From the IMG/VR virus record IMGVR_UViG_2671180680_000009: a DNA stretch of 4,965 nt, one strand, 5' to 3'. The notes under the pieces were generated by a model that saw only the letters and a program-made list of their open reading frames with translations, did no database searches and was not told where the DNA came from. This document shows, piece after piece, positions 1-4,965 of the stretch; within the stretch, counting starts at the first letter, position 1; every line of letters starts with the position of its first letter. The stretch is from a virus (Duplodnaviria; Heunggongvirae; Uroviricota; Caudoviricetes). A program made the position numbers and the translations under genes.

Positions 1-61
1 TGACAAAGTCATCGGGCATTATCTGAACATAAAACACTATCAATAAGTTGGAGTCATTACC
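1..61 (+). mobile_element. IS1 3' terminus including the right terminal inverted repeat (partial, continues beyond the window edge)
   Basis: Positions 1-61 match the IS1 right end as I recall it (...TGACAAAGTCATCGGGCATTATCTGAACATAAAACACTATCAATAAGTTGGAGTCATTACC). The reverse complement of 39-61 is GGTAATGACTCCAACTTATTGAT, the IS1 terminal repeat, which mirrors the GGTGATGCTGCCAACTTACTGAT end at 4674. Flanking DNA starts at 62. Confidence 0.85.
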
Positions 62-263
62 CCAATTTTTTACGTACGTAAACCACTAAATGATATTTGC
101 GAGAATGCTACCGAGTATTGAAAACACCACTACAAATACATAAGCAAATCCCAACAAATAACCAACAAATAATTTCCAGTGTTATTTTTAGCCGGTTTAA
201 ATTGAACCTTCAAATTATAGAGCACTTATAAATAACAACTTCACAAATCAAACGAGAAACCAA

Positions 264-290
264 AACTTACATCTTGAAATAATCACATTG
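264..290 (+). promoter_or_regulatory. Candidate OmpR-type box / porin promoter region upstream of the porin gene
   Basis: AACTTACATCTTGAAATAATCACATTG resembles the TTTACATTTTGAAACATCTA-type OmpR boxes of ompC/ompF and lies about 66-90 nt upstream of the porin ATG. Inference from motif resemblance only; no clear -10/-35 pair was found. Confidence 0.2.
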
Positions 291-355
291 ATTAGATGAA
301 TATTTATCGCGCAATGACATCATTTTTTAATAATAGTTCAAAAAAAGGGCTCACG

Positions 356-1438
356 ATGAAAAAATTAACAGTGGCAATTTCTGCTGTAGCTGCATCAGTA
401 CTGATGGCGATGTCTGCTCAGGCAGCTGAAATTTATAATAAAGACAGTAACAAGCTGGATCTGTACGGGAAAGTTAATGCTAAGCACTACTTCTCCTCTA
501 ATGATGCAGATGATGGTGATACTACTTATGCCCGTCTTGGCTTCAAAGGTGAAACCCAAATCAACGATCAACTGACTGGTTTCGGTCAGTGGGAATATGA
601 ATTCAAAGGCAACCGCGCTGAATCTCAAGGTTCCTCCAAAGATAAAACCCGTCTTGCCTTCGCTGGCCTGAAATTCGGTGACTACGGCTCCATCGATTAC
701 GGCCGTAACTACGGTGTAGCATACGACATCGGTGCGTGGACTGACGTCCTGCCAGAATTCGGTGGTGACACTTGGACTCAAACAGATGTGTTCATGACTG
801 GTCGCACCACTGGTGTTGCAACTTATCGTAACAACGACTTCTTTGGTCTGGTTGATGGTCTGAACTTTGCTGCTCAGTATCAGGGTAAAAATGACCGCAC
901 TGACGTAACTGAAGCTAATGGTGATGGTTTCGGTTTCTCCACTACTTATGAGTATGAAGGATTCGGTGTAGGTGCAACCTATGCTAAATCTGACCGCACT
1001 AATAATCAGGTTATCTACGGTAACAACAGCCTGAATGCATCTGGTCAAAATGCTGAAGTATGGGCAGCTGGTCTGAAATATGATGCGAACAACATCTATC
1101 TGGCTACCACCTATTCTGAAACCCAGAACATGACTGTTTTTGGTAATAACCATATTGCCAACAAAGCACAAAACTTCGAAGTAGTTGCACAATATCAGTT
1201 CGACTTCGGTCTGCGTCCGTCCGTTGCTTACCTGCAATCTAAAGGAAAAGACTTGGGTGCGTGGGGTGATCAGGACCTGGTTGAATATATTGATGTAGGT
1301 GCAACCTATTACTTCAACAAAAATATGTCCACTTTTGTTGATTACAAAATCAACCTGATTGATAAGAGCGATTTCACGAAAGCATCTGGCGTTGCTACCG
1401 ATGATATCGTTGCTGTAGGTATGGTTTACCAGTTCTAA
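356..1438 (+). CDS. nmpC: Outer-membrane general porin precursor, OmpC/OmpF/PhoE family, NmpC/Lc-like (prophage moron porin); 360 aa
   Basis: Start chosen at ATG 356 rather than the ORF-track start at 296. It gives a canonical signal peptide [23 protein letters not shown] with an AQA|AEIYNKD cleavage site, and AAGGG sits 6 nt upstream. The mature N-terminus [17 protein letters not shown], the PEFGGD loop-3 motif, the LAFAGLKF and YGRNYG motifs and the C-terminal ...VYQF (terminal Phe) are hallmarks of 16-strand general porins. Its position next to the Q antiterminator matches the nmpC locus of DLP12-like prophages. The ORF is uninterrupted. Confidence 0.9.
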
Positions 1439-1448
1439 TTTGATTACT

Positions 1449-1487
1449 AAAAGATATGTTGCGGGAGGCTTTGCCTCCCCAACATAT
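1449..1487 (-). terminator. Rho-independent terminator on the reverse strand (tR'-like, downstream of Q)
   Basis: ATATGTTG-c-GGGAGGC (1454-1469), loop TTT, GCCTCCC-CAACATAT (1473-1487) form a 15-bp interrupted stem. Read on the reverse strand the hairpin is followed by CTTTTAG (complement of 1447-1453). It lies about 140-180 nt downstream of the Q stop. Confidence 0.45.
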
Positions 1488-1574
1488 AAGTGGCTCCCTC
1501 AAGCCACTTCCTTTAGGAGCACAACCTTGCTTCTAACTATATAAACCTTCTGTTATATATTACCCTTTATTTTT

Positions 1575-2595: not shown

Positions 2596-2882
2596 GCCTT
2601 AATAACCCCCTCTTTCAGCCAGATAACCTGCGTTCTCGCCATACCTTCCAGCGCGCATTCTTTTGCATACTCAGCATCGACAAAATATGTGCGGCGGTCG
2701 ATTTCGTCGTGACAGGCAGAACATGCAATGGTGGCAATCAGGTCTGGCGGTTTGATACCGGTACCGCACAATCCAGCCAGCCGGATATGTGCCAGTACTG
2801 ACGTTTCAGGATTGCCATTACATACGCCAGGGATTCTTACCTGGCATTCCCGACCACGCGCTGCTTTTCTCAAATCAGCCAT
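2592..2882 (-). CDS. ybcO: YbcO-like nin-region protein (DUF1364 family, cysteine/histidine cluster), 96 aa
   Basis: Start placed at ATG 2880-2882 ([10 protein letters not shown]...), which has a perfect AGGAGG 5 nt upstream (GCAAGGAGGAATCATG). The ORF-track start at 2921 would lack an RBS and overlap ninE extensively. Contains a C..C...H...C...C..C.H cluster. Position between ninE and rusA matches DLP12. Confidence 0.8.
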
Positions 2883-3045
2883 GATTCCTCCTTGCTGCCA
2901 GTCGCAACCATTTTTTATCAACCAGGCTAGCGGTATATCCGAGCAGTGTTGGTATTTCGGATGGCTTCAGCTCAGGCTTACGCTTACGACGATTTGATAC
3001 TCTGTAGATGTGCCCGTTCATGACACGAATAAGCGGTGTAGCCAT
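2875..3045 (-). CDS. ninE: NinE-like small protein, 56 aa
   Basis: Not in the ORF track. Hand translation of the reverse strand gives [62 protein letters not shown] lies 5 nt upstream, the start overlaps the ybcN stop as TAATG, and the 3' end overlaps the ybcO start by 8 nt. Confidence 0.8.
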   Translation of the reverse strand: MATPLIRVMNGHIYRVSNRRKRKPELKPSEIPTLLGYTASLVDKKWLRLAARRNHG

Positions 3046-3500
3046 TACGCCTCCTGCTTATCGCGCAGCTGCTGGTATTCACAGCTCTGCGGAATTGTCA
3101 GGTGGCAGCCGATATTCATCGCCCAGGCTTCGACTTTGCACAGGAAGATGTACATCTCGCCGGTTTCCAGCTCTGACGTATGGCGGAGGGATTGGACGGT
3201 GGTGACCTCGCCGGACACGACATCTACACGGTCTTTGCTTTCGTAGCCGAGATAGGTGTGCTTCATCGCGTCTTTGACCCACTCAGGCGTAGCGAAGGTC
3301 TTGCCGCGGGCGATGAGATATTCGCTGATCTCCGTGTACCACATGTGGCTGAGCGCGTTCTGCGACAGGCTGCGCTTCTCGCGCCACGGCTTAACCTGCA
3401 GGCGTAAGCATTGCCCGGCATCCAGCAATGGCTGAATCTGCTGGCCGATGGCCGCGAAGTTACCGCGATGGAGTTTGATGCCGTCTACTGGCAGAGTCAT
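3045..3500 (-). CDS. ybcN: NinB/Orf-family recombination protein homolog (YbcN-like), 151 aa
   Basis: Reverse ORF MTLPVDGIKLHRGNF... with GGGAGG 4 nt upstream of the ATG (GGGAGGCCGTATG). The internal SLSQNALSHMWYTEIS segment resembles the conserved core of lambda NinB. It is the first gene of the coupled nin operon. Confidence 0.85.
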   Translation of the reverse strand: MTLPVDGIKLHRGNFAAIGQQIQPLLDAGQCLRLQVKPWREKRSLSQNALSHMWYTEISEYLIARGKTFATPEWVKDAMKHTYLGYESKDRVDVVSGEVTTVQSLRHTSELETGEMYIFLCKVEAWAMNIGCHLTIPQSCEYQQLRDKQEA

Positions 3501-3764: not shown

Positions 3765-4142
3765 ATGACCAACAAAGAAAACAAAGATAAATATATTAAC
3801 AAGTTCAAGAAAGAGCTTTCAAAATATATACAACCAACTGCTGGAGTGGACATTCAATTATTTAACTCTAAGGATGGTGGTGGTGTAATTAAAGCCACTT
3901 TGAATAGAAGTGGAAAAAGAAAATCATCTATTGCTGGTAATTTTACTAAATTAGGTGAGGCAATTACCTCGAGTGGGCAGAGGGTTTTTGGTGGTGATCT
4001 ATCAAATGTGAATTTTTACGGAACAAATACGATTTTTGATGGAGATACAATATTTTTAATTAAATCACCTGATTCAGAGGAGTGGTCATCACAAAAAGCT
4101 TCCAAAGACGTAGAGGGCATCGTATTTGGAGGGAAAAAATGA
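3765..4142 (+). CDS. Hypothetical protein, 125 aa, soluble, Lys/Gly-rich, no recognised domain
   Basis: Uninterrupted ORF in a strongly AT-rich island. N-terminus is highly charged (MTNKENKDKYINKFKKELSKY), with no signal peptide or TM segment. Gly-rich stretches (SKDGGGVIK, RVFGGDLSNVNFYGTNTIFDGDTIF, GIVFGGKK). No obvious SD; a possible -10 TATACT at 3723-3728. I do not recognise the family. Confidence 0.5.
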   Translation: MTNKENKDKYINKFKKELSKYIQPTAGVDIQLFNSKDGGGVIKATLNRSGKRKSSIAGNFTKLGEAITSSGQRVFGGDLSNVNFYGTNTIFDGDTIFLIKSPDSEEWSSQKASKDVEGIVFGGKK

Positions 4143-4224
4143 TTAACATTACTACTAAGGATGCACTCAAGTCAGTGGTGAAGTAAGAGATCTAGTAATT
4201 CTTCTTGAAACTGATGGAAAAACG

Positions 4225-4566
4225 GTGTCTGATTATTTGCAGCCAATCCCTCCCAAAAAAGATACACACTGGAGCATGATTTTCATTCCGGTAGCAATTT
4301 ATATACTACTTAATCTTGTATACATTATTGCTCACCCATTATTTCCTGAAAAATATCTAAAAACATCAACATCTATATTTCTATTCATTTCCTTCATATT
4401 AAGTGCAATAGTAGCATATTTTGTTTTCCATAAGCATAAATCTGCCACTCTATCCATATGCAGCTTAGTGTTCTTAGTGTTAATTGTAGGTGCTAACGTA
4501 GGGTTTATCAGTTACAGCGACCTAACACAAAAAGCGACGCAAAAATTAGATAGTTTGTCTAAATAA
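4225..4566 (+). CDS. Hypothetical small integral membrane protein with three predicted TM helices (113 aa from GTG 4225, or 96 aa from ATG 4276)
   Basis: Hydrophobic stretches IFIPVAIYILLNLVYIIAHPLF, SIFLFISFILSAIVAYFVF and LSICSLVFLVLIVGANVGFISY are separated by short charged loops. Same strand and composition as the upstream ORF, 82 nt downstream of it. Start is uncertain: GTG 4225 has a weak GGA 6 nt upstream, and the first in-frame ATG is at 4276. A hairpin GCCATGC-7nt-GCATGGC (4574-4594) follows the stop. Confidence 0.5.
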   Translation: MSDYLQPIPPKKDTHWSMIFIPVAIYILLNLVYIIAHPLFPEKYLKTSTSIFLFISFILSAIVAYFVFHKHKSATLSICSLVFLVLIVGANVGFISYSDLTQKATQKLDSLSK

Positions 4567-4673: not shown

Positions 4674-4904
4674 GGTGATGCTGCCAACTTACTGATTTAG
4701 TGTATGATGGTGTTTTTGAGGTGCTCCAGTGGCTTCTGTTTCTATCAGCTGTCCCTCCTGTTCAGCTACTGACGGGGTGGTGCGTAACGGCAAAAGCACT
4801 GCCGGACATCAGCGCTATCTCTGCTCTCACTGCCGTAAAACATGGCAACTGCAGTTCGCTTACACCGCTTCTCAACCCGGTACGCACCAGAAAATCATTG
4901 ATAT
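4674..4904 (+). mobile_element. IS1 5' portion (left terminal inverted repeat plus start of insA), truncated at about IS1 coordinate 231
   Basis: GGTGATGCTGCCAACTTACTGATTTAGTGTATGATGG... matches the IS1 left end as I recall it. It is in the same orientation as the IS1 tail at 1-61. Similarity stops abruptly after ...CACCAGAAAATCATTGATAT (4904). Confidence 0.9.
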
Positions 4905-4932
4905 TGTCAGCGCCAGTGATATAAGACGGTAA
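4729..4932 (+). pseudogene. insA: insA remnant: first ~58 codons of IS1 InsA followed by 9 unrelated codons and a stop
   Basis: [58 protein letters not shown] matches InsA as I recall it (with one substitution, A for T in QLQF[T/A]YTAS), then diverges to IVSASDIRR-stop where InsA should continue MAMNGVGCRA. No insB-encoding sequence follows within the window. Confidence 0.8.
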
Positions 4933-4965
4933 TTCGCCATTTGGATTGTCCGCTCCACCCAACAT

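Follow-up and report, generated by a model that had tools for sequence, protein, structure and literature searches.

Identity, setting and upstream region of an intact NmpC/Lc-type porin gene in a lambdoid prophage locus

The window analysed here, a stretch of 4,965 nucleotides from the IMG/VR virus record IMGVR_UViG_2671180680_000009, carries a porin gene that adjoins the gene of a phage Q antiterminator on the opposite strand. This arrangement raises the questions of which porin is encoded, whether the gene is intact, and whether transcription from the phage side or from a nearby IS1 element could influence its expression. Porins of the nmpC/lc type have been known as prophage-borne since the 1970s–80s, and the description of the window gene as an intact member of this type is correct but adds little that is new. 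The sole item specific to this locus is a deletion in the regulatory region of the gene, which would matter only if it altered the porin balance of the isolate.

Reading frame and identity of the porin

The porin gene (nmpC/lc family) is located at positions 356–1438 of the plus strand, from an ATG at 356 to a TAA at 1436–1438, and encodes 360 amino acids in an uninterrupted frame. The mechanical ORF call begins at 296; the biologically sensible start is the ATG at 356, which is preceded by the sequence AAGGG at 345–349. The first 23 amino acids (356–424) are identical to the signal peptide annotated for lc in the phage PA-2 record J02580, the loop-3 motif PEFGGD is encoded at 752–769 (residues 133–138), and the protein ends in VYQF, the terminal phenylalanine being F340 in OmpF numbering. 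Moreover, the pore-constriction residues K16, R42, R82, R132, D113 and E117 (OmpF numbering) are all kept. The Pfam domain Porin_1 (PF00267) spans the protein end to end (E = 3e-153; profile positions 1–337 of 337), and PDB porins match residues 24–360 with E values from 1e-137 to 1e-108, those of OmpK37, OmpC, PhoE and OmpF ranging from 1e-137 to 1e-116. The ORF call, Pfam and PDB matches confirm the preliminary description of an intact frame with signal peptide, PEFGGD motif and C-terminal phenylalanine, and the coding sequence, with these features and the constriction residues, encodes a complete general-diffusion porin. The accompanying statement that nmpC of E. coli K-12 is a pseudogene split by IS5 likewise holds, as the annotation shows IS5B interrupting the K-12 copy.

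An ORF of 280 amino acids was also called antisense within the porin gene (395–1237, minus strand). The PA-2 record likewise annotates an antisense 'ORF1', which covers the 3′ end of lc. Codon bias of the porin gene probably accounts for the antisense ORF in the window.

The set of porins used for comparison comprised OmpC, OmpF, PhoE and OmpN of strain MG1655, Lc of phage PA-2, NmpC of phage P7, and K-12 NmpC, which was rebuilt by joining both annotated fragments flanking IS5B (IS5 removed); Salmonella OmpD was left out of the set. Based on global alignments, the window porin is 90.1% identical to both K-12 NmpC and PA-2 Lc and 81.9% identical to P7 NmpC, whereas identities to the chromosomal porins amount to 63.0% (OmpN), 62.4% (PhoE), 60.3% (OmpC) and 58.4% (OmpF). 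The alignment proposed earlier as a check on whether the gene might be closer to ompC or ompF than to NmpC/Lc thus came out in favour of NmpC/Lc. OmpC, OmpF, PhoE and OmpN share with the window porin the Porin_1 fold family, the loop-3 motif, the constriction residues and the C-terminal phenylalanine, but are only 58–63% identical to it and occupy core-genome loci. Residues 1–148 of the window porin are identical to those of K-12 NmpC, and the differences from K-12 NmpC and PA-2 Lc concentrate in the surface loops L4, L5 and L6, which hold 23 of the 36 alignment positions differing from NmpC. Such a distribution would be expected of porin alleles that face phages and antibodies.

The protein is furthermore 100% identical to the porin of phage PhiR34_1 and to WP_000737275.1 of ETEC1747. 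In RefSeq/PGAP, the latter is named 'porin OmpC', with ompC as its gene symbol. Orthology to OmpC, as opposed to a prophage origin of the porin, would agree with this annotation of the identical protein in RefSeq genomes and with the NCBIfam model NF007841 'porin OmpC', on which the window porin scores 518 bits at a cutoff of 484. However, the model is of the type 'subfamily' and not equivalog, the identity to K-12 OmpC stays at 60.3% as opposed to 90.1% for NmpC/Lc, and the gene resides within lambdoid prophages between Q and the holin gene, not beside micF and rcsD. OmpC orthology was rejected on identity and synteny, and its probability is regarded as negligible. The product name arises because the porin passes a subfamily-level model, and on sequence grounds the RefSeq label is best read as a naming artefact and not as a statement of orthology. 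It can mislead porin inventories compiled for studies of antibiotic permeability or phage receptors, and genomes carrying the mislabelled porin can seem to hold two ompC genes.

In DLP12 (qsr′) of K-12, nmpC has the same neighbours as the window porin (ybcN, ninE, ybcO, rusA, ylcG and quuD, followed by the porin gene in opposed orientation), and the two copies agree in the signal peptide and nearly so in the 5′ region and 3′UTR. The K-12 copy is, however, split by IS5B near its 3′ end while the window copy is intact. The window protein is five residues shorter, the alleles differing mainly in L4–L6, and relative to K-12 the window copy has IS1 at −390 (intact-copy numbering) as well as a 96-bp regulatory deletion. 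Lc of PA-2 resembles the window porin, apart from its sequence identity, in the position relative to the lysis genes, the type of upstream region and the 3′UTR, but its loop alleles differ, and it belongs to a deposited phage with an undamaged regulatory region and two CRP sites, whereas the window copy lies in a remnant in which both sites are lost or displaced. The 'OmpD' of PhiR34_1 and PhiR68_2 and WP_000737275.1 share the 100% identical protein and the order Q–porin–holin with the window; their loci differ from it in being complete phages or an intact-looking prophage with adjacent lysis and head genes and with the 96 bp present. NmpC of P7 (P1-like; also JL22) has a homologous 3′UTR with central hairpin pairing, but its gene is flanked by odaA and ssb in a plasmid prophage of the P1 type and does not occupy a Q-to-lysis slot.

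The exact porin of 360 amino acids is indexed in 17,488 blocks gathered from public assemblies and thus occurs in thousands of E. coli and Shigella assemblies. Eight long contigs were inspected, and every one of them has the porin gene placed between Q and the gene of a phage-21-type holin, on the opposite strand, within a lambdoid prophage with lysis and head genes. At megablast sensitivity, 80% or more of the porin gene is found in 2,503 of 5,426 complete E. coli genomes, and 291 records from these genomes match it at 99% or more. Furthermore, PhiR34_1 and PhiR68_2, two ECOR-associated phages with deposited genomes, encode the identical porin. An intact nmpC is the common state and the IS5-split K-12 copy the special case; the literature likewise treats the intact gene as usual and the K-12 copy as the exception (PMC3333887).

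A further porin match was seen in the record ON032529.1, 'Salmonella phage SPF_0923' (L031), where it is located between a pyruvate-flavodoxin oxidoreductase gene and uspF. It was dropped as a relative on account of this chromosomal ompN–uspF context; the record may contain host DNA.

Setting in the prophage remnant and 3′ untranslated region

The Q antiterminator gene (quuD) at 1627–2010 of the minus strand is intact (Pfam Phage_antitermQ, PF06530, 4e-53), and its product is identical to quuD WP_001204791.1 of ETEC1747. ORF calls and Pfam confirm that Q and the porin gene are convergent, as had been described; the spacer between them measures 188 bp. The assignment of the porin to the slot between Q and the lysis genes was recovered in part: the Q side lies within the window, but the lysis side lies outside it, beyond the IS1 in near-identical loci. 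In the five loci that match the window at 99.85–100% (L004, L019, L025, L026 and L028), a holin gene is found just past the same IS1. In complete phage genomes with an identical or related porin, Q, holin and head genes are encoded on one strand and the porin is opposed to them, so late transcripts would have to cross the porin gene antisense in those phages. Moreover, the record of phage 434B carries the DLP12 block of Q, nmpC::IS5 and lysis genes.

Outside the window, between essD and the porin gene, the late-transcription strand of intact relatives (about 5940–5975 of locus L001) has a GC-rich hairpin with a T run behind it (GCTTAAACCCGCCGTCGAGCGGGTTTTTCC), a short distance before the holin gene. 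The structure resembles a terminator, which polymerase modified by Q would need to pass.

The prophage remnant ends at the 5′ part of a second IS1 (4674–4904, plus strand; BLAST to IS1), which has the same orientation as the IS1 upstream of the porin and is interrupted at 4904/4905 by an IS21-family element (4905–4965; istA and istB). The gene downstream in L004 encodes an IS21-family transposase (NCBIfam, 9e-85), and the same layout of second IS1 and IS21-family element is seen in L019 (7201–9813), L026 and L028. In the near-identical loci, the remaining IS1 and then lacY follow, in the place taken up by P, O and the immunity region in intact prophages. The early region of the prophage has thus been replaced through an IS-associated rearrangement. 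One of the near-identical loci belongs to assembly GCA_002073875.2 of Shigella sonnei 4303 (PMC6201595), and the window most probably stems from a chromosome of the Shigella sonnei type, in which the prophage is a remnant bounded by IS elements.

Downstream of the porin stop codon, the 3′UTR covers positions 1439 to approximately 1600 of the plus strand, corresponds to the ipeX region and is nearly identical to its K-12 and PA-2 counterparts. A terminator scan identified a Rho-independent terminator (stem 1576–1593 plus T run), and the fold energy of the 3′UTR is −62.9 kcal/mol (z = −7.8 versus shuffled controls). Castillo-Keller et al. reportedly placed ipeX in 2006 between the nmpC stop codon and the terminator, with PA-2 carrying the same sequence. 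No part of the window matched an Rfam family at E ≤ 1, there being no ipeX model in Rfam. The proposed assignment as ipeX is based on sequence identity to K-12 and PA-2 and on descriptions in the literature, according to which ipeX arises within the transcript of the porin gene and acts as a repressor of OmpC and OmpF (PMC12197685, PMC5069750). The porin gene would therefore also bring the IpeX RNA, a repressor of the host's major porins.

P7 and JL22 (L018, L030) have a diverged version of the 3′UTR behind nmpC, in which the pairing of the central hairpin (window 1487–1508) is kept via two compensatory changes. As a hint from two independent lineages only, this suggests that porin and 3′UTR move together as one functional unit.

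Taken with a probability of roughly 85%, the porin is an intact allele of the lambdoid-prophage NmpC/Lc type and forms a self-contained lysogenic-conversion cassette between Q and the holin gene, opposite to late transcription. The cassette would consist of its own regulated promoter, the porin gene and the IpeX-bearing 3′UTR with terminator. In a lysogen, the porin would be transcribed from its own sigma-70 promoter PnmpC, for which activation by Crp and repression by OmpR, IHF and MprA are reported (PMC11677980). The porin protein would add a trimeric pore to the outer membrane, and the IpeX 3′UTR, being part of the porin transcript, would lower OmpC and OmpF, so that the lysogen would swap porins and acquire an altered phage-receptor surface and permeability. 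Expression in lysogens, pore formation and the lowering of OmpC and OmpF have been described for NmpC/Lc porins (PMC12197685, PMC5069750, PMC3333887). In the copy studied here, the two CRP-like sites upstream of the gene have been displaced or removed by simple insertion of an IS1 and by a deletion of 96 bp that is private to this copy, and the putative core promoter is retained.

Upstream region and expression of the porin gene

The 3′ end of an IS1 (right inverted repeat; 1–61, plus strand) faces the porin gene and matches the terminus of an IS1A annotated in L002 with 100% identity. In near-identical loci, this is a simple IS1 insertion with the 8-bp target duplication CCAATTTT, a complete IS1 copy being present in L019. 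The distance of about 294 bp between IS1 and porin given in the preliminary description holds for the window, where the spacer 62–355 measures 294 bp, but it is not the native one: the IS1 insertion point lies 390 bp from the porin ATG in every relative, and the shorter spacing results from a deletion of 96 bp at 237/238 within the upstream regulatory region (62–355, plus strand).

Based on alignment with K-12, PA-2, ETEC1747, PhiR34_1 and L004, the missing 96 bp span −214 to −119 in intact relatives, counted from their ATG. The five near-identical loci have the IS1 insertion in common with the window, and all five keep the 96 bp (BLAST). The top-ranked complete E. coli genomes also span the 96 bp without exception; since a deleted copy would have ranked first, no complete E. 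coli genome appears to carry the deletion. Searches with the deletion junction and the IS1/porin junction gave zero matches in genome, metagenome and viral contig collections. As judged from these comparisons, the deletion would be either private to the source or an assembly error. Microhomology or repeats flanking the 96 bp were not found, and excision of a mobile element was rejected on this ground as the cause of the deletion.

The deletion bisects a proximal CRP-like site (AGAGATCTACTTCACA), which intact relatives possess with 8/10 core matches and the window lacks. Its TCACA half is retained at 238–248 of the plus strand, where the misc_binding feature 1363–1383 of J02580 maps, whereas the remaining half went with the deletion. 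Upstream of lc, two CRP sites are annotated in the PA-2 record; the distal CRP-like site (−421 to −406) is found on the far side of the IS1 insertion point, and within 62–355 no CRP-like site with at least 8/10 matches is left, the best being a weak one with 7/10. The pair of upstream CRP sites known from the lc annotation was thus not found in the window, which bears on the regulation of the gene and not on its identity.

PnmpC is described as a sigma-70 promoter within −199 to −1 that has a 'G' start site and is activated by Crp at two operators (PMC11677980). A stricter promoter scan gave no sigma-70-like site either upstream of the porin or on the late strand in the spacer separating it from Q, and a relaxed hexamer scan yielded candidates only. 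The candidate core promoter is located at 274–311 of the plus strand, with TTGAAA as putative −35 element (274–279), an 18-bp spacer, GAATAT as putative −10 element (298–303) and transcription starting from G309 or G311; as a further option, AATAAT at 278–283 of the same strand could serve as −10 element, which would imply a start at G290. If transcription starts at G309 or G311, the lost proximal CRP site would have been centred near −72.5, a typical position for a class I activator. Whichever start applies, the putative core promoter would survive and the activator sites would not. As the Crp inputs upstream are lost, expression of the porin is probably altered: the gene appears coding-competent, with its level and regulation probably changed, and a reduction is the more likely direction of this change.

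Two further influences on porin expression were considered in the preliminary description. It held that Q-dependent late transcription would run antisense over the porin gene, and such transcription might represent active regulation by transcriptional interference or antisense RNA. The convergence of Q and porin across the 188-bp spacer and the common strand of Q, holin and head genes in complete phage genomes are consistent with this view, and antisense transcription can be upheld as a trait of the intact phage type. In this lineage, however, everything upstream of the nin region, namely P, O and the repressor region, has been replaced by the IS1 interrupted by the IS21-family element, with lacY behind it. 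Q is normally expressed by transcription that enters the nin region from the early promoter, and as this path is gone, Q-driven antisense transcription is doubtful here. Moreover, no convincing late promoter was found on the minus strand in 1439–1626 (hexamer matches at most 8/12), and pR′ was not located. Active antisense regulation is considered unlikely at this locus. The upstream IS1, on the other hand, might drive the porin via an outward or hybrid promoter or via transposase read-through, given that it faces the gene and that no terminator-like site is present on the plus strand in 62–355. Yet its junction and the ATG are 294 bp apart (390 bp in relatives that keep the 96 bp), the best hybrid candidate there combines TTGGAG over 17 bp with TACGTA, which matches the −10 consensus at 2/6, a relaxed scan of 62–120 gave weak matches only, and transcription of the IS1 transposase is generally weak. 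Expression driven by IS1 is accordingly rated as very unlikely. What can be kept of the earlier suggestion that the IS1 could influence expression is the displacement of the upstream CRP-like site, no hybrid promoter being evident at the junction.

A different possibility is that the gene is intact in its coding sequence but transcriptionally crippled ('quiescent'), with PnmpC firing poorly and porin and IpeX not being made in useful amounts. This would refine the reading as an NmpC/Lc cassette and not exclude it. The removal of −214 to −119 together with one half of the 8/10 CRP-like site, and the lack of any site with at least 8/10 matches in 62–355, point in this direction, as does the shift of the distal CRP-like site to a position about 0.8 kb away by the IS1. 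The lost sites are exactly the two CRP sites annotated in the PA-2 record, activation of PnmpC by Crp via two operators is reported (PMC11677980), and the proximal site would have occupied a class I position if transcription starts at G309 or G311. Against this, the candidate −35 and −10 hexamers, the 5′UTR and the ribosome-binding site are untouched, and the sites for the repressors OmpR, IHF and MprA might be gone too, which would raise expression instead. Furthermore, the coding sequence shows no signs of decay and is 100% identical to the alleles of the ETEC1747 prophage and PhiR34_1. A quiescent gene is therefore regarded as a tentative but quite possible reading, at odds somewhat below even.

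Within the preferred reading of an intact NmpC/Lc cassette, it is also conceivable, albeit unlikely, that the private deletion and the IS1 insertion of the lineage uncoupled the prophage porin from Crp control and thereby also shifted the levels of OmpC and OmpF, because the transcript of the porin gene includes IpeX. If true, this would represent a small and recent rewiring of outer-membrane permeability and of phage, colicin or antibiotic susceptibility, brought about solely via the regulatory region of a prophage remnant.

Further genes of the remnant

The nin region of the remnant comprises ylcG (2096–2236), rusA (2233–2595), ybcO (2592–2882), ninE (2875–3045) and ybcN (3045–3500), all of which are intact and encoded on the minus strand. 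The Q and nin-region proteins are identical to those of the intact-looking ETEC1747 prophage, with the exception of one substitution in YlcG.

Moreover, a low-GC (33–36%) insert of two genes (phrog_18061 and phrog_16940) was observed at 3765–4566 on the strand opposite to the nin genes; in intact relatives, it sits between ybcN and the replication gene P. The insert has no PADLOC or NCBIfam match, and its second ORF shows a sub-threshold Pfam match to 7TMR-DISM_7TM (22.3 bits at a cutoff of 29). It may represent a second moron. The gene for a predicted membrane protein of 142 amino acids within the insert (4139–4566; WP_000608370.1, phrog_16940) is frameshifted by the loss of one G near 4162, and the same frameshift is also found in L004.
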